From Microcystis aeruginosa NIES-843 (GTDB lineage Bacteria; Cyanobacteriota; Cyanobacteriia; Cyanobacteriales; Microcystaceae), in assembly GCF_000010625.1 (NCBI RefSeq), contig NC_010296.1, forward strand, positions 60,001 to 92,000: a stretch of 32,000 nt of DNA, given 5' to 3'. Below, piece after piece: positions 2,390-32,000 of this stretch. The position numbers and the translations under genes are program-made. How positions within the stretch are numbered: the first letter of the stretch is position 1; every line of letters starts with the position of its first letter. The notes under the pieces are model-generated. The model ran no database searches and was not told where the DNA came from. It saw only the letters and a list, made by a program, of their open reading frames with translations.

Positions 2390-2657
2390 TGCCCCCAGGA
2401 AAAGCTTTTTGCCGCAAACCCTAATTATCCCTCTGTGCTGCCCCAGGAGACTCCTTCCACAGAATCAATGCCACTGGCTGCTTGCCACACTAAATGGTTA
2501 CATACGCTACATAATCTGTTACCATTTGCATACGGCGATTCTTCTGTCCGTTTTGTACCGATAACTCCTTATTGGATAAGCCTTTCCACTTAGAAGATGT
2601 ACCAGACTGAGCCTGAATCTGCCGTATGTATAGAATTGTTGATTGGGAATTTTTATT

Positions 2658-5471: not shown

Positions 5472-6408
<937 letters not shown>

Positions 6409-14987: not shown

Positions 14988-16055
14988 GTGAACGCTAACA
15001 TTTTTTCCGCCCCTATCTTTAAAAAACCCACTGGAACCCATCTCCTGATTCTACTAACGGGATTACTATTTCTGTTAGTAGTTTTTTTTCAGTCCACTAA
15101 TTCCCTGTTAATCCCCCTGATGGCCACAACGTTAATCAGTGCTGGTCTTGGTTGTCAAGTAGTACCGATGCTGCGGCGCTTGAAAATGGGTCAGATTATG
15201 CGCGAAGATGGACCCCAGGCCCATTTAAAGAAAGCAGGAACCCCGACCATGGGAGGCAGCTTTTTTGTGCCAGTAGCCCTTATTTTCGCTTTAATCTGGT
15301 CTAAATTCACTCCTAATGTGGTGGCGGTTGCTTTGCTGACCTTTGTTTACATGGGTATCGGTTGGTTAGATGATTGGCAAATTCTGCGTTATAAGTCGAA
15401 TAAGGGCCTGTCTCCCCAGATGAAGTTAATTTTACAGATAACGGGGGCGGTGCTTTTTTGCCTCTGGATGTTGGTCAATCAGGTGAGTACCGATATCACC
15501 CTTTGGGGTCGATTAGTCATTCCTTTGGGCTTTTTCTTCTGGATTTTGGCGGGATTTGTCCTTGTGGCTGAAAGTAACGCCACTAATCTCACCGATGGGG
15601 TGGATGGATTAGCGGGGGGAACAGGTGCGATCGCATTTTTGGGTTTAGGTATTATTATCGCCCCTAGTCATCCGGATTTGGCGATTTTCTGCACTTGTTT
15701 TGCTGGTGCTTGTCTAGGCTTCATTTTTCATAACCGCAACCCCGCTAAAGTGTTCATGGGTGATACGGGTTCCCTCGCTTTGGGAGGTGCTTTAGCTGCG
15801 GTGGGTTTAATTGCCGGACATCTCTGGGGATTATTTTTAATTAGTGGTCTGTTCTTTCTGGAATCTCTTTCGGTAATCGCTCAGGTTATCTATTATAAAG
15901 CCACAAAAGGACCCGATGGCAAGGGCAAAAGATTATTAAAAATGGCTCCTTTTCATCATCATTTAGAATTAAGTGGTTGGACGGAAACGAAGATTGTGGG
16001 AGCTTTTTATCTGGTTAATGCGCTTTTAGTTGTCTTGGCTATTTGGAGTAGTTAA
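14988..16055 (+). CDS. mraY: Phospho-N-acetylmuramoyl-pentapeptide transferase
   Basis: 355-aa polytopic protein with GTPTMGG, DDxxK, NATNLTDGVDGLA and FMGDTGSLALGG motifs. GTG start. Confidence 0.93.
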   Translation: MNANIFSAPIFKKPTGTHLLILLTGLLFLLVVFFQSTNSLLIPLMATTLISAGLGCQVVPMLRRLKMGQIMREDGPQAHLKKAGTPTMGGSFFVPVALIFALIWSKFTPNVVAVALLTFVYMGIGWLDDWQILRYKSNKGLSPQMKLILQITGAVLFCLWMLVNQVSTDITLWGRLVIPLGFFFWILAGFVLVAESNATNLTDGVDGLAGGTGAIAFLGLGIIIAPSHPDLAIFCTCFAGACLGFIFHNRNPAKVFMGDTGSLALGGALAAVGLIAGHLWGLFLISGLFFLESLSVIAQVIYYKATKGPDGKGKRLLKMAPFHHHLELSGWTETKIVGAFYLVNALLVVLAIWSS

Positions 16056-16379
16056 TTAAGCACTAAAGGAAAGACCACAACCGCAGGTATTTTGGGTGTT
16101 GGCATTGGTAAAACGGAAACCACCACCCATGAGATCTTCTGAATAGTCTAATTTTAAAATTTGTAGGTAGCGATCGCTGTCAGGATCGACTACAATATTA
16201 ATACCCTGACTTTGATAAAAGCGATCGTTTTCTGCCGCAATAGGGGTTAATTCGAGATGATAGTGAAGTCCCGAACAACCACCGTTTTTTACTGCCAAAC
16301 GCAGATAGGAACCAGTCAGACGACGGCTTTGACTCCAACGTTCAATTTCTCTAGCGGCGGCGGGACTTAATTCGATCAT
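16056..16379 (-). CDS. HesB/IscA-family iron-sulfur cluster insertion protein
   Basis: 107 aa with GGCSG and the C-terminal CGCG motif. Its stop codon directly abuts the mraY stop. Confidence 0.85.
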   Translation of the reverse strand: MIELSPAAAREIERWSQSRRLTGSYLRLAVKNGGCSGLHYHLELTPIAAENDRFYQSQGINIVVDPDSDRYLQILKLDYSEDLMGGGFRFTNANTQNTCGCGLSFSA

Positions 16380-16452
16380 TGTTTTTGAGACTATTGTAAT
16401 AATAATATCAAGTTCTTGTGAAGTTATACCACAGTTATTATCAAACTTTATG

Positions 16453-16650
16453 TTAAGTAGCTGGTTATAATTAAATTAAAAATGGATTTTAGGTTCGATC
16501 CCCCCTGCCCCCCTTGATAAGGGGGGTGCCGATAGGCGGGGGGATCGCCCCTGCCCCCCTTGATAAGGGGGGTGCCGATAGGCGGGGGGATCGCCCCTGC
16601 CCCCCTTGATAAGGGGGGTGTCTGACAACTTTTAACGCCTACCTACTTAA
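16453..16650 (+). mobile_element. MITE-like element, copy A (TTAAGTAG... terminal inverted repeats)
   Basis: The ends are TTAAGTAGCTGG and CCTACCTACTTAA. The first ~58 bp are identical to the reverse complement of 28325-28382. Confidence 0.7.
16497..16620 (+). repeat. 46-bp tandem repeat, about 2.7 units, inside MITE copy A; each unit has a C6/G6 hairpin
   Basis: The GATC marker recurs at 16497, 16543 and 16589. The unit contains CCCCCCTTGATAAGGGGGG. Confidence 0.9.
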
Positions 16651-16698
16651 GAAATATGTAACTAATGGATGGCGGGGGTAGCTGACAATTTTTAACAC

Positions 16699-16731
16699 AG
16701 AAAAAGGGTTTCTCCGAGAAACCCTTTTTCT
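16699..16731. terminator. Palindromic hairpin (variant of the GAAAACGGGTTTCT family)
   Basis: AGAAAAAGGGTTTCTCCGAGAAACCCTTTTTCT read directly. It has A/T-tracts on both sides. Confidence 0.5.
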
Positions 16732-16765
16732 AGGTGACTTAGAAGGAGAGCTTAGAAACTTAGAT

Positions 16766-16865
16766 AAAGAAATTACCCACTGGAATGCTCCCTAAAGCTG
16801 GTAAAGTCCCAGTAAATCCGGTGATATTTATTAATAAATCATTGCTGGATTGGAAGCCAGCCGTG
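16766..16865 (-). pseudogene. Orphan duplicate of the last ~32 codons plus stop of the giant exoprotein gene
   Basis: 100 bp with 3 mismatches to 17355-17454, aligned by hand. There is no upstream ORF continuation or start codon. Confidence 0.85.
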
Positions 16866-16940
16866 AGAGGAGCGGGTATTTGTCACAGGGGAATTAATTT
16901 GTGGTAGCATACAATTAAATGCGTTTTGTCTGCTAGGATA

Positions 16941-17231
16941 ATGCTCAACCTTTCAAAAGACATTCATTCTTTAACTGAGTTTAAACGAAACACGACCCGG
17001 TTCCTAGAGCATCTCAAACAAACCAAAGACCCTTTGGTGCTTACGGTTGATGGGAAAGCAGCACTCGTCGTGCAAGATGCGGAATCCTATCAGACACTTC
17101 TTGAAGCTGCTGAATTGGTTGAGACGCTTAAAGGAGTCAAGCGTGGTCTTGAAGAGATGAAGCAAGGCAAAGGTAAGAAGGCAGAGGAATTCTTCTCTGA
17201 ATTGTTCGATAAGCTGGACAGTTCTCCATGA
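16941..17231 (+). CDS. Type II antitoxin, Phd/YefM family
   Basis: MLNLSKDIHSLTEFKRNTTRFLEHLKQTKDPLVLTVDGKAALVVQDAESYQTLLE. The ATG at 16941 is preferred over TTG 16926. Its stop overlaps the next ATG (ATGA). Confidence 0.8.
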   Translation: MLNLSKDIHSLTEFKRNTTRFLEHLKQTKDPLVLTVDGKAALVVQDAESYQTLLEAAELVETLKGVKRGLEEMKQGKGKKAEEFFSELFDKLDSSP

Positions 17232-17404
17232 GCCAAAAGTATCAAGTGGTCATACAACCTGAAGCACAACAGGGAATTGAAAAAGCCTATCTGTGGTTCA
17301 GTAAAGATTCTCCTCGAAAAGCGAGGTTGTGGCTAGAAGGATTGTTAATTAAACAAAGAAATTACCCACTGGAATGTTCCCTAAAGCTGGTAAAGTACCG
17401 GTAA
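17228..17404 (+). pseudogene. Truncated RelE/ParE-family toxin gene (only ~41 authentic codons)
   Basis: MSQKYQVVIQPEAQQGIEKAYLWFSKDSPRKARLWLEGLL matches a ParE/RelE N-terminus. After ~17350 the frame reads antisense through the 3' end of the giant gene to a stop at 17402-17404. Confidence 0.65.
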
Positions 17405-20400
17405 ATCCGGTGATATTTATTAATAAATCATTGCTGGATTGGAAGCCAGCCGTGCTATCATTAATAACGAGGTAAGTTCCAGCTATCGCACCGGTTGTTA
17501 CCTGCACTAAGGCGGCACTATTAACCCCTAATCCTTGATTACCTGTAGTGGCTCCATTGGCATCAGTAAATACTTGATTGATTAAATTCTGTAAAGTGGT
17601 GACAGTGCTATTAGCAGCACGACTGAAATTGCTAGGCGCACTCGTGGCGTTTCCAGCTTGAGTTAATAAGTCAATTTTATCACTATTGATGGCAAAATCT
17701 GTGATACGATCCCTTGTTGATATGGTAGATTGACCAAATTGGAAGATAAAAGTATCTGCACCTAAACCACCGGTTAAGGTATCAATTCCCGCACGTCCAT
17801 TGATTTGATTATTGCCACTATTTCCGGTGATTTTATTGTTACCGGCGTTACCTGTACCATTAATATTATTACTGCCAATTAGTCTGAGGTTTTCGACATT
17901 GGCGGGTAGGGTAGTGGTGACATTAGCGGTTAAGGTGTCGCTGATGGTGACAATTCCCTTGTTATTGCTAAGAGTTGCATTGACGGGATTACTGAGGTTA
18001 ATGGCAAAAGTTTCGTTTGCCTCATTAAGGTTATCATTGAGGATGGGAATGGTAATAGTAGCAGTGGAAGTATTAGGTGCAATGGTGATAGTTCCAGTTT
18101 TGCTAGTGTAATCTACATTGGCGATAGCGTTAATGGGTGCAGTAGTATAATTGACGCTAATTGGTTGTGGATTGGGGTTGTTGACAGTGACGGTGAGGAT
18201 GGCATTATTATCTTTACCCTCGACAACGGTGACATTATTGATGGAGAGTTTGGAGAAATCGTCATTAGTAATTGTCCCCGTCACTGCGGTGGCCGTACCT
18301 ATTGTATAACCCGTCCCAGGAGCAAGGTTTAAAGTTACGGTTTCATCATCTTCAACATTTGTATCAGCAGTGGGGTCAATTGTTACAGTCGCAGTATCTG
18401 AACCAGCAGCGAAGGTGACTGTATTATTAGTCCCTGTACGAGTGTAATCTGTATTAAGGGTAGCTGTCCCTCCGAGGGTGTAATTGACTGTTAAAGCATT
18501 GGTTGTTACACCAGTACGAGTGAAGGTATAAACGAGATTAGCTGTCCCGTCTTCTGTCACACTACTGGGAGAAACCGCAAGAGTGACACTGGTATTATCA
18601 CCATCATCATTAGTAATTGTTCCTAATCCTTGATTATCTGTAATCAGCGCATTGCTAGGATTAGAAAGGTTAATCAAGAAAGTCTCATCGGGTTCAATTG
18701 CAGTATCACCATTGACTGAAATAATAATATCTTGGCTGGTTTGTCCGGGGGTAAAGGTGAGAGTCCCTGTTGTGGCTGTATAGTCGCTTCCTGCTGTTGC
18801 TGTGTCATCAGCAGTGGCATAATTTACGGTAATTGTTTGGGTACTTGTGGTTGACAATGTAACTTTAAATACCAGGTTGTTTGTTCCTGAATTGTTTTCT
18901 ACAATTGTCGGATTTGAGATTGTAAAGAATGGTTTATCCCAATCGGCTGCTGTCCAGGTAGTTGTTGCTTGCCAAGTTTGGGGTGTCCATTCATCAATAC
19001 TGTTCCAAGCATCTCCTGACCATTTAGTTGTAGCTTGCCAAGCGTTATCTCCCCAGTCAGGTATGGCATCCCAAAAGTTATCAATTGTCTGTGATGCTGT
19101 AGCTGTTGTTGCTATTTGATAGCTATTTGTGTCGAGAAAAGATGATGCAAGCGTTTGCGTTGAATTGCTTTGATTTGCAGTTGATGGAGATAAACCAAGT
19201 TTCTTGTCAGACTGTCCAATAATCGCATCCCACGCATCTGAAGTCCAAGATTTAGCTGCGTTGTAAGCGGATGTTACTGCATCGGATATATTTCCAAGAC
19301 CATCAATGGCAATTCCGATTGCTTGGCGTACTTTTTCAGTGGTTCCACGATAAGTTAAAGCCGCTGCCAGATATGTTCCTGTTAATCCAATTCCAGGAAT
19401 AGGTAAGCTTCCCAATCCTCTAATCATCATTTGCAATGCAAAATAATCAGCATCAGGCAAATATGTAAACCAGTAACTACTTAAATCAGTGGTATTTCCG
19501 TTGGCAACTTTCCGAGTTAAATCTGTCGGCTTTGACAAATTAGTTCTTGTAATAGTTTGATTTAAGACGGGAACTGAATGTTTTTCAAAAGTAATTGCAG
19601 ATGTTAGTTTTGAATATTTTTCTAAGTTCCAGAGTCCATTTAGGTATGTTGAACCTGCAATGCTAACCACATCGGCCGAGGTTATGTAATGAGTGACACC
19701 TAAGTTATTAGTAGCGTTGAAATTAATGCCGGGTTGTTGAGAAATACCCGGACTATTGAAAGTAACAATCTTTCCGAGTTGTCCTGTATAACTACCCCCT
19801 ACCCACTGACTTAATGCACCGCCTAAACTATGACCTGTAATATTAGGTTTTAGAGTCAATCCGCTTACGGGATTAGATACTTCTGAAAGCCATTGATTGA
19901 TTGCGGCTTTATTGTTAGTAAATTGATTATAGCCAACTCCTTCGGTTTCAGTATCACTTAATAAATCTTTACCAGATGAGAATTCAGTACCCCGAATGGC
20001 TAAAACAGGAGGTTTAGCAAGGTCATAAATTGTGCCATCAGTGAAGGTATAGGATTGATTGGCGCTGGTGAGTTGGTTGATTAGATTCTGTCCAGCAGTA
20101 TAGGCGGCGGTATTGTTACCGCCTGAAGTATTGGCAATATCTTGCAGTAAGTTATTGCTATTAGATGTAAATTCATTGGCATTAAGGGGATTGGCTAAAA
20201 CCAGAAAGAATTTTTCATCAGAAGTTAAACCAAAAGCATCAAATCCTGTGCTAGAATCTTTGAAAACTTTATTGATACGATAGCCTTCGTAACCCAGGTC
20301 ACTATAGTCATAGATCTTATCTACTTCTTTGCCTTTGTCCGTATCTGTCCAATCACGATAAGCGGTGTCTCTAGCCAAAATCTCAAAGGTTTGGTCGGTA

Positions 20401-22640
20401 GGAGGCGCACTTCCTAAAACAGTAATTTCTATTTGTTTACTGGTTTGTCCTGGGAAAAAGGAGAGGGTTTGTTTGACAACATTGTTAAAATCTTTTAATT
20501 GGTTAGGGTCTATTGAATTGGCACTTCCATCAAGGGTATAGTAATCAACGGTTATGGGTTTATCATAGGTTGAGGATAGTTTAACCTCGAAAATAACCTT
20601 CCCTGCGGGAGCATCAAACCGCGCATTACTGACTGATATCGTTGGTTTAGGTGGAGGATTAGGAGTGGGTGGGAGTGCTGTGTAAGTGGCATCATCATAT
20701 ATATTTGGATATTTTGGATCTATTGGATTTGCTATCCATTGACCATTAATCCAGCTGGATTCAGATGTAGTTGAATCTCCATCTGAATCTATATACCAAA
20801 CTTGGTTCGCAGTATGTCCACTAATAATACTATTTGAACTCCATGTACCCCTATTGTAAATACCACCACCTAAGTTGGCATTATTGTTAGTAAGAATGTT
20901 ATTCGTTAATGTTAATGTACCCCCGTTGTAAATTCCCCCCCCAGCATCAGCAGTATTACCTGTTATTGTACTGTTGGTTATTGTTAATGTTCCCGTAGAG
21001 TTGAAAATTCCCCCTCCAGAACGAGTAGCCGTATTACCAAATATTGTACTGTTGGTTAATGTTAATGTTCCCCCATCGTTGTCAATTCCCCCTCCGTCAT
21101 AAGCAGCCGTATTACCAGATACTGTACTTTCAGTTAATGTTAATGTTCCATAGTTTTCAATTCCCCCTCCAGAACCAGTAGCCGTATTACCAGATATTGT
21201 ACTGTTGGTTAATGTTAATGTTCCCCCATAGTTGTCAATTCCCCCTCCGTCATAAGCAGCCGTATTACCAGATACTGTACTGTCAGTTAATGTTAATGTT
21301 CCATAGTTTTCAATTCCCCCTCCAGAACCAGTAGCCGTATTACCAGATATTGCACTGTCGGTTATTGTTAATGTTCCCGTAGAGTTGTAAATTCCCCCTC
21401 CAGAACCATAATAACCAGTAGCCGTATTACCAGATATTGTACTGTTGGTTAATGTTAATGTTCCCCTTCCCCAGTTGTAAATTCCCCCTCCAGAATAAGT
21501 AGCCGTATTACCTGTTATTGTACTGTTGGTTAACGTTAATGTTCCATCGTTCTCAATTCCCCCTCCAAAATTAGTAGCCGTATTACCTGTTATTGTACTG
21601 TTGGTTAACGTTAATATTCCCCTTCCCCAGTTGTGAATTCCCCCTCCAGTATTACCAGATATTGTACTGTTGGTTAATGTTAATGTTCCATCGTTGTCAA
21701 TTCCCCCTCCATAAGTAGCCGTATTACCTGTTATTGTACTGTTGTTTAATGTTAATGTTCCCCCGTAGTCGTTGTCAATTCCCCTTCCTGCTTTGTTGCT
21801 GATATAGAGATTATTTAATGTAACTCCAAGTTGACTAGAGTTACTTATAATAGAATTATAATCATTCTCCCCAGAGATAGGACTAGCATTATTAACAATA
21901 GAAGCTAGTGCTGTTCCATCAGTTTCAATGGTAATCGTACCATTCGTATTCAAACTGCGATCGCCTGTTGTCGTATTATTAACATAAGTTAAAGCATAAG
22001 TCGTTCCTGATTTCAGCTTAATAATATAGGGAGTATTAGGACTTTTATTAGCAATTGTAACAGCATCCCGCAAAGATAAACCACTCCCAATAGTGGCACT
22101 TCCATCATTCTCATCTATAGTAGTATTGACAATTAAAGTAATTGGTGATGTTTGTTCAACCCCTATAAATTGTCCACCTAAATTAATAACAGAACGATCA
22201 TCTTCTGTTTGAATATAAGTTAACTCAGCCTCAGTTAAATTAACCCCTCTCACCAGATGAGAAAATAATTCTCCCTCATCCCCCACCGTATCCACCCTAT
22301 TAATTTGAGCATCCACATAATGCCCAATTTCTTCTAAAATCACCGCAACCAAAGCATCTAAACTAGCAGAAGCAAAAAAACTTTCAGATAGATATATCTT
22401 ATTGGTGCTAATCCCATAAGCGCCATTTGCACTACCTAAAACACTGCTATTGACAACCTCAATCTCAGGAAGTTGACTAAAATCTCGGCTTTGCCACTGC
22501 TGTCGTAATTCTGTCGCTTTAACCACATCATAACTTGTGCCAAAAGCGGTTTCTAAATTCGCCCAAAAGCCATCAGATTGAGCGAAATCGAACAAAACAT
22601 CGTCAACAGCAGGAAGGAGGGGCAACAGGGTAGAAGTCAT
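17349..22640 (-). CDS. Giant (1763 aa) multidomain RTX-type exoprotein: conserved N-terminal domain, parallel beta-helix (PMP-like) repeats, Calx-beta-like domain, class-3 lipase-like alpha/beta hydrolase, 3 Calx-beta domains, RTX nonapeptides, conserved C-terminal tail
   Basis: About 12 repeats of GGGIxNxGTLTLTNSTISGNTAT lie at nt ~20850-21790. The GHSLGG nucleophile elbow is at aa 936-941 (nt 19818-19835). Calx-beta signatures are present (ITVNYATADDTATAGSDYTATTGTLTFTPGQTS...DETF). RTX repeats are GNAGNNKITGNSGNNQINGRAGIDTLTGGLGADTFIF. No Sec signal peptide is visible. Confidence 0.85.
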   Translation of the reverse strand: MTSTLLPLLPAVDDVLFDFAQSDGFWANLETAFGTSYDVVKATELRQQWQSRDFSQLPEIEVVNSSVLGSANGAYGISTNKIYLSESFFASASLDALVAVILEEIGHYVDAQINRVDTVGDEGELFSHLVRGVNLTEAELTYIQTEDDRSVINLGGQFIGVEQTSPITLIVNTTIDENDGSATIGSGLSLRDAVTIANKSPNTPYIIKLKSGTTYALTYVNNTTTGDRSLNTNGTITIETDGTALASIVNNASPISGENDYNSIISNSSQLGVTLNNLYISNKAGRGIDNDYGGTLTLNNSTITGNTATYGGGIDNDGTLTLTNSTISGNTGGGIHNWGRGILTLTNSTITGNTATNFGGGIENDGTLTLTNSTITGNTATYSGGGIYNWGRGTLTLTNSTISGNTATGYYGSGGGIYNSTGTLTITDSAISGNTATGSGGGIENYGTLTLTDSTVSGNTAAYDGGGIDNYGGTLTLTNSTISGNTATGSGGGIENYGTLTLTESTVSGNTAAYDGGGIDNDGGTLTLTNSTIFGNTATRSGGGIFNSTGTLTITNSTITGNTADAGGGIYNGGTLTLTNNILTNNNANLGGGIYNRGTWSSNSIISGHTANQVWYIDSDGDSTTSESSWINGQWIANPIDPKYPNIYDDATYTALPPTPNPPPKPTISVSNARFDAPAGKVIFEVKLSSTYDKPITVDYYTLDGSANSIDPNQLKDFNNVVKQTLSFFPGQTSKQIEITVLGSAPPTDQTFEILARDTAYRDWTDTDKGKEVDKIYDYSDLGYEGYRINKVFKDSSTGFDAFGLTSDEKFFLVLANPLNANEFTSNSNNLLQDIANTSGGNNTAAYTAGQNLINQLTSANQSYTFTDGTIYDLAKPPVLAIRGTEFSSGKDLLSDTETEGVGYNQFTNNKAAINQWLSEVSNPVSGLTLKPNITGHSLGGALSQWVGGSYTGQLGKIVTFNSPGISQQPGINFNATNNLGVTHYITSADVVSIAGSTYLNGLWNLEKYSKLTSAITFEKHSVPVLNQTITRTNLSKPTDLTRKVANGNTTDLSSYWFTYLPDADYFALQMMIRGLGSLPIPGIGLTGTYLAAALTYRGTTEKVRQAIGIAIDGLGNISDAVTSAYNAAKSWTSDAWDAIIGQSDKKLGLSPSTANQSNSTQTLASSFLDTNSYQIATTATASQTIDNFWDAIPDWGDNAWQATTKWSGDAWNSIDEWTPQTWQATTTWTAADWDKPFFTISNPTIVENNSGTNNLVFKVTLSTTSTQTITVNYATADDTATAGSDYTATTGTLTFTPGQTSQDIIISVNGDTAIEPDETFLINLSNPSNALITDNQGLGTITNDDGDNTSVTLAVSPSSVTEDGTANLVYTFTRTGVTTNALTVNYTLGGTATLNTDYTRTGTNNTVTFAAGSDTATVTIDPTADTNVEDDETVTLNLAPGTGYTIGTATAVTGTITNDDFSKLSINNVTVVEGKDNNAILTVTVNNPNPQPISVNYTTAPINAIANVDYTSKTGTITIAPNTSTATITIPILNDNLNEANETFAINLSNPVNATLSNNKGIVTISDTLTANVTTTLPANVENLRLIGSNNINGTGNAGNNKITGNSGNNQINGRAGIDTLTGGLGADTFIFQFGQSTISTRDRITDFAINSDKIDLLTQAGNATSAPSNFSRAANSTVTTLQNLINQVFTDANGATTGNQGLGVNSAALVQVTTGAIAGTYLVINDSTAGFQSSNDLLINITGFTGTLPALGNIPVGNFFV

Positions 22641-22733
22641 GACGGTAACAGCAGAGGTTTATTGCTAACAGTTTTAGCTCAACAATGGCCAATTTTTCAA
22701 GACCCCTGTAACAGAAATTAACATTTATTCCAA
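22641..22733 (-). promoter_or_regulatory. Leader/promoter module C (upstream of the giant gene)
   Basis: The conserved CTTGAAAAATTGGC box (+ strand 22688-22701) is shared with modules at 24574-24661 and 26073-26170. A possible TTGAAA -35 sits 17 nt from CTAAAA. Confidence 0.4.
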
Positions 22734-22764
22734 GAAAACGGGTTTCTCAAAGAAACCCGTTTTC
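22734..22764. terminator. Perfect palindromic hairpin GAAAACGGGTTTCTCAAAGAAACCCGTTTTC
   Basis: Read directly. It lies between the Rpn fragment stop and leader module C. Confidence 0.6.
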
Positions 22765-22781
22765 TAGATATTAGGATAAGA

Positions 22782-23193
22782 TTATTGGATTCTTGCCAAA
22801 GACTGCCTAAATTCTGCGAGAGAATTAGCGGTAGCTGCTAATTTTAGTAGCTCTTCTAAGATAGTAGGGTTAGTCATTTTGCCGATTATCTCTTCAATTT
22901 CTGAAGAAATCTGTCCAAACCGCACAGTTAAAACTGTTTTTATGGCATCGCGGCTTTTTTGTAACGCGCCAATTTCTTTACCAATTTCTTTACCGCGTTC
23001 TATTCCTCGTAACTCCCCAATTTCCTTGCCAATTTCCTTACCGATTTCCTTACCGCGTTCTATTCCTCGTAACTCCATATTACTCATTAAAGGCATGGTT
23101 CTTTCCTCCTCAAATTGTTTGATTTTACTCTCTAAACTTGACTGCAATTCAGGGGATAAAGTCATCATATTGTCGATGATTTCAAACAGTTTA
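22782..23193 (-). pseudogene. 3' fragment (C-terminal ~135 codons) of an Rpn-family/DUF4351 gene
   Basis: MMTLSPELQSSLESKIKQFEEERTMPLMSNMELRGIERGKEIG... is collinear with residues ~215-339 of the full copies. Homology to them ends after CAGTTTA at 23193. Confidence 0.8.
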
Positions 23194-23218
23194 CTAAGTA
23201 AGGTAGGTATTACCCACC

Positions 23219-24229
23219 CTACTTATTTATGATGATACTAAAAGACTTCCTACACTCCTCAAAAGAATTTACTATAAGTGCGGCTTTTAACATCTCTTCT
23301 AAAACCGAAATAACTGAAGCATCATTGAGACATTGTCCAATATCTCCAGGGATATCGCCTAGTCGGTTTTCCAAAACTTTTTTCACAAAATCACGAGCAT
23401 TTTCTAACGCTCCAATTTCCTTACCAATTTCCTTACCGCGTTCTATTCCTCGTAACTCCCCAATTTCCTCACCAATTTTCCTTCCTCGTAACTCCATATT
23501 ACTCATTAAAGGCATGGTTTTTTCCTCCTCAAATTGTTTAATTTTACTCTCTAAGCTTGACTGCAATTCAGGGGATAAAGTCATCATATTGTCGATGATT
23601 TCAAACAGTTTAATTATCTGTTCCCTCTCGAACTCCTTTTCATATAATCCCCTGATTAACTTCCACTTCCACTGTTCCCGTTGTGGCAGCTTCCCAGTAG
23701 TCGCTTTTGTTTTCAGGTGTGCCATGACTATTATAGCAAAGGGATTGCTACTTGCTTCTAGTTCTGACCAGCTTTCCTCATAGTCCAGTAATTTGACTGT
23801 TGGGAATTTCAGACTCACTTCACAGCCGGCGATAGTATAATTATAGGAATCTGGTCGCCAATTTACTCGTTCATCTCCTAAAATTGCCAGACTGATAACT
23901 GGTTTCTGATACAAATCAAAGGCCCGATAGTTATAAATATACATCCTCTGAGGGAAATTTTCTTCGTATTGACTTTGAATTTCAATATGAATCAAAATCC
24001 AGACTTCTTGTCCCTCAAGTAGCCAAGCCTTATAAAGTTTGTCAGCGAAACGTTTTTTTGTCTTTGCTGAAGCGGTAATCCGTTTGAGTTCTTTTTCCAG
24101 GGATTCGGGAATTTTTGTCCAATCAATTAGTTGGTGAACTTCAGGAAAAAAGAAGCATAAAAACGCTTCAAAATACTCGGTTAATGCTTCTTTCCAGGGT
24201 TCATCATAATTGGCGGTTGTTGGGTTCAT
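23219..24229 (-). CDS. Rpn-family recombination-promoting nuclease/putative transposase (PD-(D/E)XK) with DUF4351-like C-terminus, copy 2
   Basis: 336 aa. It has an N-terminal YDEPWKEAL motif, a FADKLYK...ILIHIEIQS (D...ExQ) core, and a C-terminal repeat plus helical tail. Family assignment is from memory of YhgA/Rpn-like cyanobacterial proteins. Confidence 0.7.
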   Translation of the reverse strand: MNPTTANYDEPWKEALTEYFEAFLCFFFPEVHQLIDWTKIPESLEKELKRITASAKTKKRFADKLYKAWLLEGQEVWILIHIEIQSQYEENFPQRMYIYNYRAFDLYQKPVISLAILGDERVNWRPDSYNYTIAGCEVSLKFPTVKLLDYEESWSELEASSNPFAIIVMAHLKTKATTGKLPQREQWKWKLIRGLYEKEFEREQIIKLFEIIDNMMTLSPELQSSLESKIKQFEEEKTMPLMSNMELRGRKIGEEIGELRGIERGKEIGKEIGALENARDFVKKVLENRLGDIPGDIGQCLNDASVISVLEEMLKAALIVNSFEECRKSFSIIINK

Positions 24230-24573
24230 TTGAGTTGTTTGCTTACTCGTAGGCTGTGAAGCGCGATAGCGTAACGCACCGATTTAATAATAGAGTTGGT
24301 GGTGGTAATCTGGGGATTTTGTGGTAAAAAAGCGGATATTTGTTCGATTCCGTCTTGATTGGGAGAGAGAATAACCGTGGCGACTCCAGGGATTACCCCA
24401 GCTTGGAGACTTTGATAATCGCTAACACCAGCATCGAGGAAAACTACGGTAGCGGTTAAACGCTGATTTCTCGCACTATCCACCCGATTAGCTTGACTCA
24501 AGCCATCAGATTGAGCAAAATTGAACAAAACATCGTCAACAGCAGGAAAGCTCGGCAACAGGGTAGAAGTCAT
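24226..24573 (-). pseudogene. Leader plus truncated DUF4347-domain ORF (stub B), stop overlapping Rpn copy 2 start (ATGA)
   Basis: MTSTLLPSFPAVDDVLFNFAQSDG is followed by ...VVFLDAGVSDYQSLQAGVIPGVATVILSPNQDGIEQISAFLPQNPQITT. The domain breaks off where full-length DUF4347 proteins continue with IHxVSHG. Confidence 0.65.
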
Positions 24574-24661
24574 GACGTTAACTGCAAAGGATTAATGCGA
24601 CTATTTTGTGCAAACAATCGCCAATTTTTCAAGGGGGATATAACAAAAATTAACATTATAC
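24574..24661 (-). promoter_or_regulatory. Leader/promoter module B
   Basis: It contains the CTTGAAAAATTGGC box (+ strand 24620-24633) and is collinear with modules A and C. Confidence 0.4.
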
Positions 24662-24710
24662 AGAAAACGGGTTTCTTTAAGAAACCCGTTTTCTAAGAAA
24701 CCCGTTTTCT
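24662..24710. terminator. Palindromic hairpin AGAAAACGGGTTTCTTTAAGAAACCCGTTTTCT plus a duplicated right arm
   Basis: Read directly. The right arm AAGAAACCCGTTTTCT is repeated at 24695-24710. Confidence 0.6.
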
Positions 24711-25728
24711 AGATATTGATTTTAGCCAAAGACTGCTTAAATTCTGCGAGAGAATTAGCGGTAGCTGCTAATTTAACAATCTCTTGTAATGTAGATAGTA
24801 CCGAAACTTTATTCAGGTATTGTTCCACATCTAAAGGAACTTCACCTAAGCGAGCTTGCAAAACTGTTTTGACAAAATCACGAGCATTTTCTAACGCTCC
24901 AATTTCCTTACCAATTTCCTTACCGCGTTCTATTCCTCGTAACTCCCCAATTTCCTTACCAATTTCCTTACCGCGTTCGATTCCTCGTAACTCCATATTA
25001 CTCATTAAAGGCATGGTTCTTTCCTCCTCAAATTGTTTGATTTTACTCTCTAAACTTGACTGCAATTCAGGGGATAAAGTCATCATATTGTCGATGATTT
25101 CAAACAGTTTAATTATCTGTTCTCTCTCGAACTCCTTTTCATACAATCCCCTGATTAACCTCCACTTCCACTGTTCCCGTTGTGGCAGCTTCCCAGTAGT
25201 CGCTTTTGTTTTCAGGTGTGCCATCACTATTATAGCAAAGGGATTGCTACTTGTTTCTAGTTCTGTCCATCTTTCCTCATAGTCCAGTAATTTAACCGTT
25301 GGGAATTTCAAACTCACTTCACAACCAGCGATAGTATAATTATAGGAATCTGGTCGCCAATTTACTCGTTCATCTCCTAAAATTGCCAGACTGATAACTG
25401 GTTTCTGATACAAATCAAAGGCCCGATAGTTATAAATATACATCCTCTGAGGGAAATTTTCTTCGTATTGACTTTGAATTTCAATATGAATCAAAATCCA
25501 GACTTCTTCACCCCTGAGTAACCAGACTTTATAAAGTTTGTCAGCGAAACGTTTTTTTGTCTTAGCTGAAGCGGTAATCCGTTTGAGTTCTTTTTCCAGG
25601 GATTCGGGAATTTTTGTCCAATCAATTAGTTGGTGAACTTCAGGAAAAAAGAAGCATAAAAACGCTTCAAAATACTCGCTTAATGCTTCTTTCCAGGGTT
25701 CATCATAATTGGCTGTTGTTGGGTTCAT
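24709..25728 (-). CDS. Rpn-family recombination-promoting nuclease/putative transposase with DUF4351-like C-terminus, copy 1
   Basis: 339 aa. The first ~270 aa are nearly identical to copy 2, while the C-terminal ~60 aa diverge. Confidence 0.7.
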   Translation of the reverse strand: MNPTTANYDEPWKEALSEYFEAFLCFFFPEVHQLIDWTKIPESLEKELKRITASAKTKKRFADKLYKVWLLRGEEVWILIHIEIQSQYEENFPQRMYIYNYRAFDLYQKPVISLAILGDERVNWRPDSYNYTIAGCEVSLKFPTVKLLDYEERWTELETSSNPFAIIVMAHLKTKATTGKLPQREQWKWRLIRGLYEKEFEREQIIKLFEIIDNMMTLSPELQSSLESKIKQFEEERTMPLMSNMELRGIERGKEIGKEIGELRGIERGKEIGKEIGALENARDFVKTVLQARLGEVPLDVEQYLNKVSVLSTLQEIVKLAATANSLAEFKQSLAKINI

Positions 25729-25781
25729 TGGAGTTGTCCGCTTACTCTTAGGGGTGAAGCGCGATAGCGTAACGCACCGAT

Positions 25782-26072
25782 TTAATAATAGAGGTGAATG
25801 GTGGTAATCTGGGGATTTTGTGGTAAAAAAGCGGATATTTGTTCGATTCCGTCTTGATTGGGAGAGAGAATAACGGTGGCGACTTCTGGAATTACTCCAG
25901 CTTGGAGACTTTGATAATCGCTAACACCAGCATCGAGGAAAACTACGGTAGCGGTTAAACGCTGATTTCTCGCACTATCCACCCGATTAGCTTGACTCAA
26001 GCCATCAGATTCAGCGAAATCGAATAAAATATCGTCAACAGCAGGAAGAATCGGCAACAGGGGAGAACTCAT
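25782..26072 (-). pseudogene. Leader plus truncated DUF4347-domain ORF (stub A)
   Basis: MSSPLLPILPAVDDILFDFAESDG is followed by the same DUF4347 N-terminal segment as stub B. It ends ...PQITTIHLYY. Confidence 0.65.
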
Positions 26073-26170
26073 GATATTAACTGTAAAGGTTTATTGCTAA
26101 CAGTTTTAGCCCAACAAGCGCCAATTTTTCAAGACTTCCATAACATAAGTTAACATTGATCGGGAAAACT
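26073..26170 (-). promoter_or_regulatory. Leader/promoter module A
   Basis: It contains the CTTGAAAAATTGGC box (+ strand 26120-26133) and is collinear with modules B and C. Confidence 0.4.
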
Positions 26171-26226
26171 GTATTTCTAAATCATCAGTTTTTCTGAATA
26201 TTGTCTCTCAATTCCCCCCTCACAAC

Positions 26227-26730
26227 TTAATCTAATTCATTTGCAGTTTGCAAAACCTCCTCATAAAGTTGATGACTGATGCGAAAATTTGCTTGGCTAA
26301 TTAGAGACTCCATTATCGGTTTAACCTTAGAAACTAATCCTCTATTTTTAGCAATTAAAAGAACTCCTAGAATACCCGTAATTGACAGCCCCAAACGCAC
26401 AGCCTCCCTCCGTCCAAGACGTTCATAAATTAACAATTCATCCGCCTTTAATTCCCAAGCAAGAGCGATTGCTTCTGCTTCGCCAAGATCTAAATTATAT
26501 TCATTCCTCAAACAAGCCACAAGTTCTAAATTAGTGGCTTGTTGAACCTGTATCCATTCCAGAGAAAGCGTCGCTTTAATGCGGATATCTTCCTCAGTTA
26601 AATTGGCCAATTCATTGGCAACTGCTTGGGGAATAATAACATTAGTATAAATATCTTTTAAGATTGACAGATAACCAACAAGAGCAAGACTGCTGAGAGG
26701 AGAAGTATCGCTAATAATGATCATAGCCAA
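26227..26730 (-). CDS. DUF3368-type PIN-like nuclease (putative toxin)
   Basis: IIISDTSPLSSLALVG...LDLGEAEAIALAWELKADELLIYERLGRREA...GILGVLLIAKNRGLV. It overlaps the upstream UPF0175 gene by 10 nt. Confidence 0.75.
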   Translation of the reverse strand: MAMIIISDTSPLSSLALVGYLSILKDIYTNVIIPQAVANELANLTEEDIRIKATLSLEWIQVQQATNLELVACLRNEYNLDLGEAEAIALAWELKADELLIYERLGRREAVRLGLSITGILGVLLIAKNRGLVSKVKPIMESLISQANFRISHQLYEEVLQTANELD

Positions 26731-26987
26731 CCTTTGTTTTTTAAATGCTTAATATCTTCCTGAAACTCAGCAACATCATAATGAATACAAATTCCTCTTT
26801 CAGAAAGCAGCCGTTGAAACTTGATTTGATTAATACCTAATAACTCACTTGCTTTTCCCAAGCTAATCTTATCTTGTTGAAATAACATAATAACAATCTC
26901 TTTTAACAGTTCATCCTCTGATAAACCACTTGCTTTAATCACTTCTTGGGAAATAACTAGACTCATATTTTCTTCGTATTTTGACAA
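26721..26987 (-). CDS. UPF0175-family antitoxin-like protein
   Basis: 88 aa with an HTH-like motif LGKASELLGINQIKFQRLLSERGI. It is the canonical partner of DUF3368 proteins. Confidence 0.75.
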   Translation of the reverse strand: MSKYEENMSLVISQEVIKASGLSEDELLKEIVIMLFQQDKISLGKASELLGINQIKFQRLLSERGICIHYDVAEFQEDIKHLKNKGWL

Positions 26988-27225
26988 GAATTATACAAAT
27001 GTTATCCTATTTTTCGCCGCCTGTCAAGGTGAATTGGTGAGTAATTCCCACCCTACGGTAAAAAGCATTGTCTTTGACCTCACTTCAATCAACAAGCTAT
27101 AATGACAATTTTAGCGGGTCATTGTCAGGGGGATACTTCCCGCGTTAACTTTTCTCTTTCAGCCAAAACCACCCGAAGTAATCTCACCGCTTGTGATGGC
27201 GAAGATGCGATCGCTAACGTCAAAA

Positions 27226-28146
27226 CTAGGCAGTTAAAGTATTTAACCAATTGATTAAATCTTCAACCGTAGAGAAATCGAATAAAGCTTCTCCTAATAC
27301 TTCGACATCATCAATACTTAACTGCATAATTTTAGTTTCTAATGAAGGATTAATCTCCCCTAACTTGCGTTTAAGTTGACGAAGAATCAATGTCTTTTCG
27401 CGTTCAATACCTTGTTCGATACCTTGACGCATCCAACTGGTGGTAATTTGCATAACTCCCTCCTGTACGGGTTGACTAAATGTGCTAATCTCTTGTTGAA
27501 ATTGTATCTCTTCGACCGGATTTAGATTGAGATAAGTATCAATAAATCCAGAAATTAATTGCATTCTCGCCGCATCTAACCTTAAAGTAATTAACAAGCG
27601 CAGACATTCGGCCTTAACTTTTGCTCGCTCTTTCTCGGCAATGTTCATCTTCGCCATCAAAGCTGAAGCAACCGGATTCGGCTGATTGAGAAAATCTCGC
27701 CAATTTAATCGATTTAACTGCACTACTTGATAGTTAAATTCTAAGACCTTAAAATCGGGAAAATCGACCACATATTGACTAATCGCTGCTCTTTTTGGCC
27801 TTGAATAAGAAAAAATTACAATCGGATAAATCGGTAAGACAAATTTCTCATGAAAGCGAGCAAAATAAGTAAACATTCGCCGGTTAAACCACTTTCGGGA
27901 ACTTTCCTGCGCCTCTACATGAATCAGAAAGAAAGATTCTTTTCCTCGAAACTTAACCTGTGCGACTAAATCACTTTCATACCTTTCTCCTTCCGTGACA
28001 TCTGTAAATACTTCTTTGTCTAAAAAAGTAATCGAGTCCCTATCTAAATAATTGATCAATTGAGGGAAAAACAACTCGATAAATTCGACAAAAAAGATGG
28101 AGATTAACTCCTTAAATAAGCGATCATGGTCAATATTATTAGTCAT
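27226..28146 (-). CDS. Divergent Rpn-family PD-(D/E)XK nuclease/putative transposase with DUF4351-like C-terminus
   Basis: HDRLFKELISIFFVEFIELFFPQ..., a D...FLIHVEAQES core, a QGIEQGIERE linker, then LILRQLKRKLGEI...LSIDDVEVLGEALFDFSTVEDLINWL. Confidence 0.7.
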   Translation of the reverse strand: MTNNIDHDRLFKELISIFFVEFIELFFPQLINYLDRDSITFLDKEVFTDVTEGERYESDLVAQVKFRGKESFFLIHVEAQESSRKWFNRRMFTYFARFHEKFVLPIYPIVIFSYSRPKRAAISQYVVDFPDFKVLEFNYQVVQLNRLNWRDFLNQPNPVASALMAKMNIAEKERAKVKAECLRLLITLRLDAARMQLISGFIDTYLNLNPVEEIQFQQEISTFSQPVQEGVMQITTSWMRQGIEQGIEREKTLILRQLKRKLGEINPSLETKIMQLSIDDVEVLGEALFDFSTVEDLINWLNTLTA

Positions 28147-28250
28147 GTAATATCATCTTAACTAATCTGAGTGATGAATGACTACTCTTCTCTATTATAT
28201 TCTGAAAAGTCTGTTTTGGCAGCAGATTGTTATAACCTTACCCCTTTAAC

Positions 28251-28382
28251 CTAAGTAGGTAGGCGTTAAAAATTATCAGACACCCCCGTTATCAAGGGTA
28301 GGGTTGATTCATGAATCAACCCTAGGGGCAGGGGGGATCGAACCTAAAATCCATTTTTAATTTAATTATAACCAGCTACTTA
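28251..28382 (-). mobile_element. MITE-like element, copy B (inverted relative to copy A)
   Basis: CTAAGTAGGTAGGCGTTAAAAATTATCAGACACCCCC...GGGGCAGGGGGGATCGAACCTAAAATCCATTTTTAATTTAATTATAACCAGCTACTTA. Both ends match copy A in reverse complement. The internal hairpin AGGGTTGATTCATGAATCAACCCT replaces the 46-bp array. Confidence 0.7.
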
Positions 28383-28403
28383 CGAAAAGAGGGGGATGCT
28401 TTC

Positions 28404-28436
28404 AGAAAACGGGTTTCTTAAAGAAACCCGTTTTCT
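28404..28436. terminator. Perfect palindromic hairpin AGAAAACGGGTTTCTTAAAGAAACCCGTTTTCT
   Basis: Read directly. It belongs to the same family as 22734-22764 and 24662-24693. Confidence 0.55.
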
Positions 28437-28569
28437 GTGGGGTTCAATCTTATCGAGTGCGATTGCCTTTCTTATCGTTGGTATTAACGCAGTGTAATGC
28501 AGCATTGCCTTATATCTCAGTCCAGATTCTTGAAAAATGGCTTAAATTCATCTTCCACAGCTTAGGGAA

Positions 28570-30891: not shown

Positions 30892-31050
30892 TTGACATCC
30901 TCACCGCCGGGGCCGGACGGTGATGACCGGCAGATCAAACAAACTTAATTGAACGATCTTCGGTTGGGTTGACGCTTCACGGGATGCTGCTTCTTTAACA
31001 GAAGTCTTACACTTTCCTCTGCGTCCGTTTTTTGAGGTCTCCGATTGCCC
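30892..31050 (-). ncRNA. Predicted omega-RNA (reRNA) scaffold at the right end of the tnpB element
   Basis: The minus strand ends ...CACCGTCCGGCCCCGGCGGTGAGGATGTCAA (hairpin plus terminal motif). This position, overlapping the tnpB 3' end, is where IS200/IS605 TnpB guide RNAs are encoded. The 5' limit is approximate. Confidence 0.45.
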
Positions 31051-32000
31051 ACCGGCGACCTTGATATTAATTGCGGCGTTCACGTCTCGATCATGGAAAG
31101 TCCCACAGAAAAGACATTCCCACTCACGGATATTTAACGCTTTCTTCCCGCCGATATTCCCACAACAGGAACACCTCTGAGACGTTGGCTCCCATCGGGA
31201 AATTATCCGAAAATCACGCCCATATTTGTCAGATTTTGCCGATAGCATATCTCGAAAAGAACGCCATCCTAAATCTGATATAGCACGGGACAACTTGCGA
31301 TTTTTAACCATTCCCGATGTGTTTAAATCCTCTAAAATTATCGTTTGATTTTCACGAACAACTCTAGTGGATATTTTATGCAAGAAATCAGTGCGAGTGT
31401 CTTTAATCTTTGCGTGGATTCTAGCTACTCGTTTCCTAGCTTTTTCCCGTCGTTTACTTCCCTTCTGTTTTCTAGAAAGGTTTTTCCGATGCTCTTCTTA
31501 GTCGTTTTAATCGTTTCTTTAACGGTTTCGGTGCGTCTATCTTTTCTCCTGTTGAGAGGGTAGCAAAGGTAGCAATCCCTAGATCAATTCCCACTGACTC
31601 CCCATTATTGGGAAGTATTTCGGACTGAATCTCGACGACAAAACTAAGAAAGTATCGATCTGATGCGTCTTTGATCACGGTGACGCTAGAAGGTTTAGAA
31701 GGTAATGGGCGACTCCAAACTATTCTTAAATCACCGATTTTCGCTAAAGTAACGCAGTGTTGGTTAACGGTAAAACCATTATCGGTAAATCTTGCTAATT
31801 GTTTAGATTTACGCTTCTTAAATTTAGGAGGTTTGACTTTCTTTCCTTTTCTTTCTCCCTTGCAAGATGCAAAAAAGTTAGAATAGGCTGTCTCTAAGTC
31901 TCTCAAAGACTGCTGTAAAGGGATAGAAGAAACCTCGGTTAACCACTGTTTTTCTTCTGTTTTCTTGACTTGAGTTAGTCTTTTAGATAACTCAGTATAT
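30901..32000 (-). pseudogene. tnpB: IS200/IS605-family TnpB (OrfB, RuvC plus Zn-ribbon) RNA-guided nuclease gene, frameshifted; 5' end beyond the window
   Basis: The upstream frame reads ...QWLTEVSSIPLQQSLRDLETAYSNFF...VGIDLGIATFATLSTGEKI...RLRRASEKPF*. The downstream frame reads LSRKQKGSKRREKARKRVARIHAKIKDTRTDFLHKISTRVVRENQTIILEDLN...CSCCG...CLFCG..HDRDVNAAINI. Removing one A from the A5 run (T5 on the + strand, 31481-31485) restores a single ORF. Confidence 0.85.

Follow-up and report, generated by a model that had tools for sequence, protein, structure and literature searches.

Tandem rpn units with a repeated 5' cassette upstream of a giant exoprotein gene in Microcystis aeruginosa NIES-843

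Anatomy of the locus

The region described here lies in a 32,000-nucleotide stretch (the window) of Microcystis aeruginosa NIES-843 (assembly GCF_000010625.1, contig NC_010296.1, positions 60,001 to 92,000). On its minus strand, two 1499-bp units, each composed of a leader module, a truncated DUF4347 open reading frame (ORF; the stub), an Rpn-family nuclease gene and a palindromic hairpin, are followed by the gene for a 1763-amino acid (aa) exoprotein of the bluetail type. The features of this region, in window coordinates, are:

25999-26160, minus strand: module copy A, ATG at 26072, with a -35-like TTGAAA inside a box at 26133-26120
25782-26072, minus strand: stub A ORF, 96 aa, leader plus DUF4347 positions 1-52, broken after ...PQITTIHL
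25729-25791, minus strand: stub-to-Rpn spacer of unit 1 (its 64-nt consensus was taken from unit 2)
24709-25728, minus strand: RpnA, 339 aa, alpha tail, catalytic residues D9/D63/E83/Q85/R95
25014-25012, minus strand: predicted internal start ATG of RpnA, behind GAGGAGG
24969-24898, minus strand: KEIG repeats of RpnA
24661-24710, minus strand: palindromic hairpin closing unit 1 and RpnA, 1.5 copies, -27.3 kcal/mol, terminator-like on both strands
24500-24661, minus strand: module copy B, second promoter haplotype, ATG at 24573
24226-24573, minus strand: stub B ORF, 115 aa
23219-24229, minus strand: RpnB, 336 aa, beta tail ...SFSIIINK
23515-23513, minus strand: predicted internal start ATG of RpnB
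22782-23193, minus strand: orphan Rpn C-terminal cassette, gamma tail, rpnSs-like
22732-22765, minus strand: palindromic hairpin between the orphan and module copy C, -23 kcal/mol
22567-22728, minus strand: module copy C, heading the giant gene, ATG at 22640
17349-22640, minus strand: giant exoprotein gene, 1763 aa

The three minus-strand ORFs that start at 26072 (96 aa), 24573 (115 aa) and 22640 (1763 aa) have in common about 95 nt of 5' sequence and their first 24 codons. The initial annotation had placed three copies of one module at these ATGs, and this was borne out by ORF and repeat analysis, the repeat finder delimiting a shared block of 162 nt (5' region plus 24 codons). The box within it, CTTGAAAAATTGGC, occurs three times against 0.06 expected, and a decayed hairpin arm is found directly upstream of copy A. 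The spacing of 1499 bp between the stub ATGs, and likewise between the Rpn ATGs, was also confirmed; the two values are a single fact, because the distance from stub ATG to Rpn ATG is 344 nt in each unit. The units are thus correctly described as tandem, but a clean recent duplication was rejected because their identity is mosaic: about 77% in the module, 96-100% in the stub and the Rpn N-domain, and about 61% over the last 150 nt of Rpn. Repeats of such size can be mis-assembled from short reads, a concern that the initial annotation had raised. However, the copies differ, being mosaic with different C-terminal tails, and the same architectures are present in independent complete genomes and in metagenome contigs, so the tandem units are not an assembly artefact, an explanation to which we assign a negligible probability.

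The claim that the same hairpin closes each unit holds for RpnA but not for RpnB, whose 3' end lacks it and where the orphan carries it instead. The hairpin is a perfect palindrome, AGAAAACGGGTTTCT..AGAAACCCGTTTTCT (-21 to -27 kcal/mol), repeated after genes and just 5' of almost every module; its window copies map to 16698-16731, 22732-22765, 24661-24710 and 28403-28436. Further copies were located in two of the loci retrieved from other sequences (designated by L numbers), at L015 6805-6831 and L024 1816-1842. In some loci a copy or half-site of the palindrome sits at the truncation point of a leader-bearing ORF, and half-sites are tandemly reiterated 5' of the L038 giant. The palindrome might be a terminator acting in both directions, or else represent a recombination scar or a mobile mini-element.

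The giant protein contains the leader and a conserved N-domain, beta-helix/PMP repeats, four Calx-beta domains and a C-terminal bluetail domain (NCBIfam NF041519, residues 1704-1762, 67.7 bits against a cut-off of 21). The N-domain corresponds to residues 1-169 (22140-22640), with E104, G106, H107 and D110 invariant (EEIGH..D). Its AlphaFold2 (AF2) model, with a predicted local distance difference test score (pLDDT) of 87.6, weakly resembles zincin metallopeptidases (deuterolysin, probability 0.96, E 0.1; also selecase, SprT and HtpX), and the first His of HExxH is replaced by Glu in the N-domain.

A second copy of the final ~106 bp of the giant gene is present (16760-16865 and 17349-17454, 95% identical). 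Between the two copies lie a Phd/YefM antitoxin gene (16926-17231) and a truncated ORF (17228-17404) without a Pfam match, which we read as a RelE/ParE-like toxin remnant. The orthologous giant of Microcystis ichthyoblabe (L016) lacks the insertion. The duplicated 3' end is the same displaced-3'-end pattern as that of the Rpn orphan.

The leader module and the stub-to-Rpn junction

A degenerate leader pattern matched 28 loci in the reference-genome collection, five of them on the single chromosome of M. ichthyoblabe FBCC-A1114, so that the other leader-bearing genes anticipated by the initial annotation do exist. Microcystis accounts for 27/28; the remaining match is on a contig of a metagenome-assembled genome labelled Crocinitomicaceae, which is taken to be mis-binned. 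A blastn search located the complete 162-nt module, with sharply defined borders, at about 45 places. The leader was therefore not triplicated locally, as had been proposed, because the module is family-wide; N-domain giants of Nostocales and Snowella also begin with a similar-looking N-terminus. The module is the regular 5' end of the genes of a multigene family in Microcystis, every Microcystis gene of which starts with a cassette of ~200 bp comprising hairpin, promoter-like region, short 5' untranslated region and 24 codons.

Translation from each leader revealed two body types, joined to the module at a sharp boundary at codons 24/25. The first consists of N-domain giants of 534-1763 aa (FWANLETAFG...GAY..STNKIYLS...EEIGHYVDAQ), and the second of DUF4347-type giants such as that of L025 (>1276 aa). 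Two promoter-region haplotypes were each seen with both body types, indicating recombination inside the module. Synonymous divergence among giants is 0.21 in the leader versus 0.38 in the adjoining body, which is consistent with homogenisation by gene conversion. The leader is probably native to the N-domain giant family, the DUF4347 type having gained it in Microcystis.

A promoter-like region is present in all three window copies and in 36 aligned copies from other loci, and an ATG opens all module copies except two (L004 and L011). The best-kept non-coding positions are TTGA.A followed 17-18 nt on by.AAAA., a pattern that fits a putative sigma-70-type promoter; the module may thus have promoter activity. 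Silent cassettes are absent, since the module copies come with a promoter-like region and an ATG of their own. The swapping of gene bodies behind a shared promoter, which the initial annotation had suggested, was not supported as a programmed system: neither silent promoterless cassettes (3 + 36 copies) nor a site-specific recombinase or inverted switch sites were seen, and an ORF and domain search of 16000-28500 revealed no recombinase gene.

In Borrelia, the vlp/vsp surface-protein families have conserved 5' ends and undergo expression-site switching that results in antigenic variation. The Microcystis family resembles them in its shared promoter and N-terminus, variable bodies and recombination-prone setting, but differs in that the window copies carry their own promoter-like region and that a silent archive, an expression site and a dedicated recombinase were not identified. 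Matus-Garcia et al. reportedly described, in 2012 in Nucleic Acids Research (NAR), putative mobile promoters, that is, homologous 5' regulatory regions before non-homologous genes. These are similar in being discrete; the window cassette of ~160 bp has sharp ends and heads unrelated bodies at many loci. Unlike them, it runs 24 codons into the ORF, is confined to one protein superfamily, is always beside a palindromic hairpin, and appears to spread by homologous recombination.

Two other identities for the module were considered and rejected. For an RNA element, Rfam gave only sub-threshold noise on the hairpin, and RNAalifold found 0 compensatory pairs in 36 copies. For a double-glycine secretion leader, positions assessed by eye do not fit the consensus. 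Direct repeats TGTTAAnnnnTGTTA(C/T), ~10 nt apart, abut the -35-like TTGAAA (22702-22728 and equivalents in modules A and B), and are reminiscent of OmpR/PhoB-type response-regulator sites, such as cyanobacterial Pho boxes, for which they are candidates.

Behind the leader, stub A covers Pfam DUF4347 positions 1-52 and stub B positions 1-49 of 164, neither window stub having the complete domain according to Pfam. The break in copy A comes after PQITTIHL and not, as first reported, after PQITT. Intact relatives read PQITTIHLVSHGAPGC, running on VSHGAPGC past the stub A break (L025), which supplies the DUF4347 gene body that had been noted as missing. A 1-nt indel in copy B relative to A alters the stub end and makes the stub B stop overlap the RpnB start (ATGA). 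Stub homologues are all short (54-162 aa) and nearly all from Microcystis, and truncated leader ORFs are common among leader loci.

The 64-nt spacer between stub and Rpn occurs at 92-100% identity over its full length at 11 places, and over its first 38 nt in unit 1, and this recurrence indicates one ancestral junction. The first 31 nt of the spacer resemble a palindromic element 3' of the bluetail gene in L021. Other rpn copies show three further 5' flanks, giving four classes in all, and the homology stops at or a few bases from the rpn ATG. This argues against transposition of the unit, or of rpn plus hairpins, with Rpn as the transposase and the hairpins as ends. Such a mobile element would agree with the historical annotation of the family as 'putative transposase', with the many copies per genome, and with the hairpins that flank units and occur inside truncated genes (L015 and L024). 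Nevertheless, it is very unlikely: inverted terminal repeats and target duplications were not seen at the four flank classes, the palindrome is also found far from rpn genes, the arrays are head-to-tail duplications, and autonomous transposition was not supported in Zhong et al. (PMC10400941).

A second stub class, ending in ...AFLPLLKP (92 aa in L001, 88 aa in L012), has a junction different from that of the stub-Rpn pairs. In L001 (15892-18790) this stub is directly 5' of a separate MSTPFLVKD...ELWKSDGT-repeat gene, and a similar order with longer stub ORFs was found in L058 (1180-4078) and L091 (9178-12936). The arrangement looks like an internally deleted DUF4347-type giant.

The Rpn genes and their C-terminal region

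The RpnA family has 5887 representatives at E <= 1e-3, and a protein 97% identical to a window Rpn bears the NCBI name "Rpn family recombination-promoting nuclease". D9, D63, Q85 and R95 do not vary in an alignment of 57 homologues, in which E83 is conserved to at least 90%. The active-site residues of E. coli RpnA are D11, D63, E82, Q84 and R94 (PMC5350276), and the catalytic residues of the window family stand opposite the last four of these in hhalign. Weak Transposase_31/Rpn matches were obtained for both full-length genes. The family profile also aligned over its full length, C-terminus included, with the window ORF 27226-28146 (hhalign probability 99.6%, E 6e-24), which carries Pfam DUF4351 (E 3e-21), the domain equated with free-standing RpnS by Zhong et al. 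2023 (PMC10400941). The AF2 model of RpnA (pLDDT 93.6) has a long helix (244-294) bearing the repeats, followed by a small helical bundle. Foldseek with this model retrieved only weak PD-(D/E)XK nucleases, phmmer of RpnA against the PDB returned 0 matches, and a search with PADLOC v2 (2023) left the Rpn proteins without a match.

The biology of Rpn itself is already known. E. coli has RpnA-E, in which the RpnL toxin has an intragenic RpnS antitoxin, as well as rpnE-ypaA/rpnESs (PMC10400941; PMC5350276). RpnL/RpnS consists of a PD-(D/E)XK nuclease toxin and an antitoxin made from its own C-terminal domain, and is an antiphage system (PMC10400941). Zhong et al. 2023 (PNAS) further described rpn arrays formed by tandem direct duplication, hypervariable C-termini with four-residue repeats, and downstream small homologues (PMC10400941). 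The statement in the initial annotation that it knew of no described system is therefore only half right.

The window genes fit the RpnL/RpnS toxin-antitoxin kind as far as sequence can tell, and their toxicity or defence activity is predicted on that ground. The likeness to the E. coli genes extends to a PD-(D/E)XK core with the same five residues, a variable DUF4351-related C-terminal domain, and strain-variable numbers of four-residue repeats that combine one hydrophobic residue with charged residues or glycine (KEIG here, KGIE in RpnC) and start 8-20 residues past an internal Met. It also includes arrays by tandem direct duplication, a downstream small C-terminal homologue, and neighbouring defence and toxin-antitoxin genes. 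In contrast, the window proteins belong to a distant cyanobacterial subfamily, known here from sequence and falling under the Pfam and NCBIfam cut-offs; a captured promoter and a truncated neighbouring gene form part of the unit that is duplicated; their four discrete tail alleles recombine among copies; and their position just upstream of giant exoprotein genes is conserved.

KEIG-type repeats vary from 1 to 9 units across 19 Rpn copies, and begin 15 residues past M239, within the 8-20 residues past the internal Met given by Zhong et al. (PMC10400941). M239 and P240 are invariant in the family alignment, and GAGGAGG lies 8 nt 5' of the M239 codon. The sequence GAGGAGGAA-AGA-ACN-ATG is kept at 143 sites in 13 haplotypes, including homologues that are only 57-66% identical, and the wobble position next to the motif varies while the motif is kept. 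An RpnS-like product is thus predicted from internal translation at M239. Four recurrent tail types (alpha, beta, gamma and delta) follow. Two metagenome contigs that are 99.74% identical over 7 kb differ mainly in their first Rpn (L032 8891-9907, 338 aa; L034 8903-9907, 334 aa), by one four-residue unit, which shows population-level polymorphism in repeat number.

The orphan behind RpnB (ORF 23168-22782, 128 aa) keeps GAGGAGG-ATG, with the ATG at 23096-23094, and its region (23193-22782) is 99% identical to the start of the unit 1 C-terminal region. It had been reported as a third, 5'-deleted Rpn copy. The element is real, but it is not a random remnant, since a beta-tail Rpn is paired with an orphan in 5/5 loci, indicating a conserved displaced C-terminal cassette.

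Polymorphic toxins such as Rhs and CdiA-CT have a conserved upstream segment, alternative C-terminal modules and displaced orphan cassettes. As in these, the displaced module of the window retains a conserved stretch that permits homologous exchange. Here, however, the variable module is the oligomerisation/antitoxin domain of an intracellular nuclease, and not a delivered toxin with an immunity gene.

Head-to-tail Rpn arrays are present at further loci. In Cylindrospermopsis raciborskii G7 (L050 4968-11089), at least six full-length rpn genes lie in tandem, each start overlapping the preceding gene end by 20 nt, and fragments follow the array.

That the stubs and Rpn copies are inert debris, decaying in a genome rich in repeats and insertion sequences and with no present function, is rather doubtful. 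The stubs are truncated and under relaxed constraint, truncated leader ORFs are common, and some Rpn copies elsewhere are broken: IS66 interrupts a copy in L001, and a copy in L005 has lost an internal segment. On the other hand, the two Rpn ORFs of the window are intact, as is the orphan, more than 100 copies retain the catalytic residues and the internal Shine-Dalgarno sequence and ATG, the family is represented as widely as noted above, and the discrete tail alleles with varying repeat number resemble the outcome of diversifying selection.

Strain comparison, pairing with giant genes and proposed history

Related loci differ in unit number and in the giant gene that they carry. The hoxEF locus of NIES-298, which shares the hoxEF flank of the window, has 0 stub units; its order is DUF4351-Rpn, one Rpn (N-domain plus gamma tail), a different toxin-antitoxin pair, a module and a different giant. 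BLCC-F210 has the DUF4351-Rpn/UPF0175/PIN flank of the window, 1 unit whose Rpn has an internal deletion, and likewise another giant. In M. ichthyoblabe the two flanks of the window are at separate loci 1.9 Mb apart: at one, the module is fused straight to a giant without any unit; at the other, the orthologous giant stands behind unit 2 and the orphan. The strain alignment called for by the initial annotation thus showed 0, 1 or 2 units and different giants at related loci, so that its recombination hotspot is upheld on evolutionary timescales, with promoter haplotypes reassorting over body types.

The reading that we favour, and regard as probable, is that of an rpn toxin-antitoxin/defence array that grew as the repeated 5' cassettes of a surface-protein family underwent homologous recombination with one another, a promoter having been captured via the stub. 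From the sequences we infer the following order of events. One ancient illegitimate event would have fused a DUF4347-type member, near its codon 95, with the 5' flank of rpn, giving the unit module-stub-rpn-hairpin. The unit would then be duplicated, deleted and moved among family loci as module copies underwent ordinary unequal homologous recombination and gene conversion; its copy number can change by unequal crossover because hairpin-plus-module direct repeats bracket it. Later gene conversion would render the copies mosaic. The stub would give each rpn an exoprotein-type promoter, to which the stub of unit B may add translational coupling via the ATGA overlap. The rpn C-terminal domain would diversify in KEIG repeat number and by exchange among the four tail alleles, and the orphan behind RpnB would be a displaced or extra small antitoxin-like gene (rpnSs). 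The alternative mentioned in the initial annotation, of Rpn genes hitch-hiking on the promoter, is close to this reading.

Several results weigh against the array reading. The hhalign probability between the window family and E. coli RpnA is just 32%; the two Rpn proteins scored 17.6 and 16.5 bits with PF04754 (curated cut-off 21) and 16.5 and 19.3 bits with TIGR01784 (curated cut-off 52.1); and a Foldseek search with the full-length RpnA model recovered no solved structure below E 0.1, 7TH0 included. The ratio of nonsynonymous to synonymous polymorphism (pN/pS) of the stubs, 0.59, would fit a functional leader peptide as well as slow decay. The count of Rpn genes next to giants, given below, is biased by the fetching of most loci via Rpn. 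Finally, an array model gives no account of an Rpn-to-giant pairing kept across orders.

This pairing, conserved well beyond the window locus and recurring across cyanobacteria, is what is new here; no prior description of it was found in the literature on Microcystis with DUF4347, bluetail or Rpn/YhgA. The window region occupies the place usual for this Rpn subfamily in cyanobacteria, directly upstream of and co-oriented with a giant exoprotein gene. In Anabaena azotica, Dolichospermum and Snowella, Rpn genes 61-69% identical are found 340-600 nt upstream of N-domain giants in the same orientation, and the order is conserved in three further metagenomic contexts (the metagenome locus scan used a 13-sequence Rpn alignment). 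Among the fetched loci, an Rpn-family gene ends <=2.5 kb upstream, on the same strand, of 23/24 evaluable distinct N-domain gene starts; most of these loci were fetched via Rpn, which biases the count, but the leader-anchored subset, free of this bias, gave an upstream Rpn in 7/7. The adjacency counts in favour of the array reading. About two thirds of the non-Microcystis Rpn loci have no giant downstream. It is conceivable, though improbable, that the Rpn subfamily and N-domain giants form a coupled two-gene unit across cyanobacteria, in which the nuclease promotes or polices recombination at the constant cassette, or acts as a dedicated addiction module keeping deletion-prone giants in the genome. 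In the former case, new bodies would be grafted behind a constant promoter and N-terminal cassette, leading to surface-protein diversification.

Active diversification, with Rpn nuclease breaks at or near the hairpin and module driving the exchange of bodies or cassettes and so surface-protein variation, is unlikely; it widens the main hypothesis of the initial annotation to the family as a whole. It would suit the Rpn-giant adjacency, seen in at least five independent contexts outside Microcystis and in many within, the fusion of the N-domain to many unrelated bodies (RTX, LVIVD, FG-GAP, Calx-beta, lectin and M64), the different giants at loci with the flanks of the window in NIES-298 and BLCC-F210, and the joining of the module to two unrelated bodies at a sharp boundary. 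Overexpressed E. coli Rpn proteins also raise RecA-independent recombination (PMC5350276). However, the module copies come with a promoter-like region and an ATG of their own, cleavage by E. coli RpnA is not sequence-specific (PMC5350276), the family has since been reinterpreted as toxins (PMC10400941), ordinary homologous recombination among 160-bp repeats suffices to explain the patterns, and the Rpn loci lacking a downstream giant fit it poorly.

The favoured array reading would extend the RpnL/RpnS toxin-antitoxin model to bloom-forming cyanobacteria, with its repeat-number variation, downstream small homologues and arrays, and offers a concrete route of array growth, by capture of a neighbour's promoter and first codons and then amplification via repeated 5' cassettes. 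The co-oriented pairing over several contexts and orders provides a handle on an in vivo role of Rpn beyond toxicity. The locus may also bear on how the modular giant surface proteins of Microcystis gain bodies, and hence on the diversity of strains and their interactions with phages in blooms.

Toxin-antitoxin and defence genes are densely packed at this locus. Upstream of the units and at the borders of the region are:

26227-26987, minus strand: UPF0175 antitoxin and DUF3368 (PIN-like, E 1e-61) pair, PADLOC PDC-S70 candidate defence system
27226-28146, minus strand: Rpn-subfamily gene, 306 aa, with a DUF4351 C-terminus and full-length homology to the RpnA family, shared with the NIES-298 hoxEF locus
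16454-16649 and 28252-28382: repeat regions bearing an inverted repeat

The inverted repeat has a perfect 58-nt arm pair (16454-16511 and 28325-28382) and a second pair at 94%, and brackets the entire 11.8-kb giant/Rpn/toxin-antitoxin island. Within the left copy, a 46-nt sequence is repeated three times in tandem (16497-16634). The right copy looks like an insertion, because the hoxEF flank measures ~103 nt in NIES-298 versus ~316 nt in the window. The repeat may be an element resembling miniature inverted-repeat transposable elements (MITE-like), and could permit inversion.

Elsewhere in the window, a second RTX exoprotein of 863 aa with five Big_12 domains and HemolysinCabind is encoded at 2643-5234, an IS110-family transposase ORF at 5707-6408, and a TnpB (Cas12f1-like TNB) fragment at 30901-31383.

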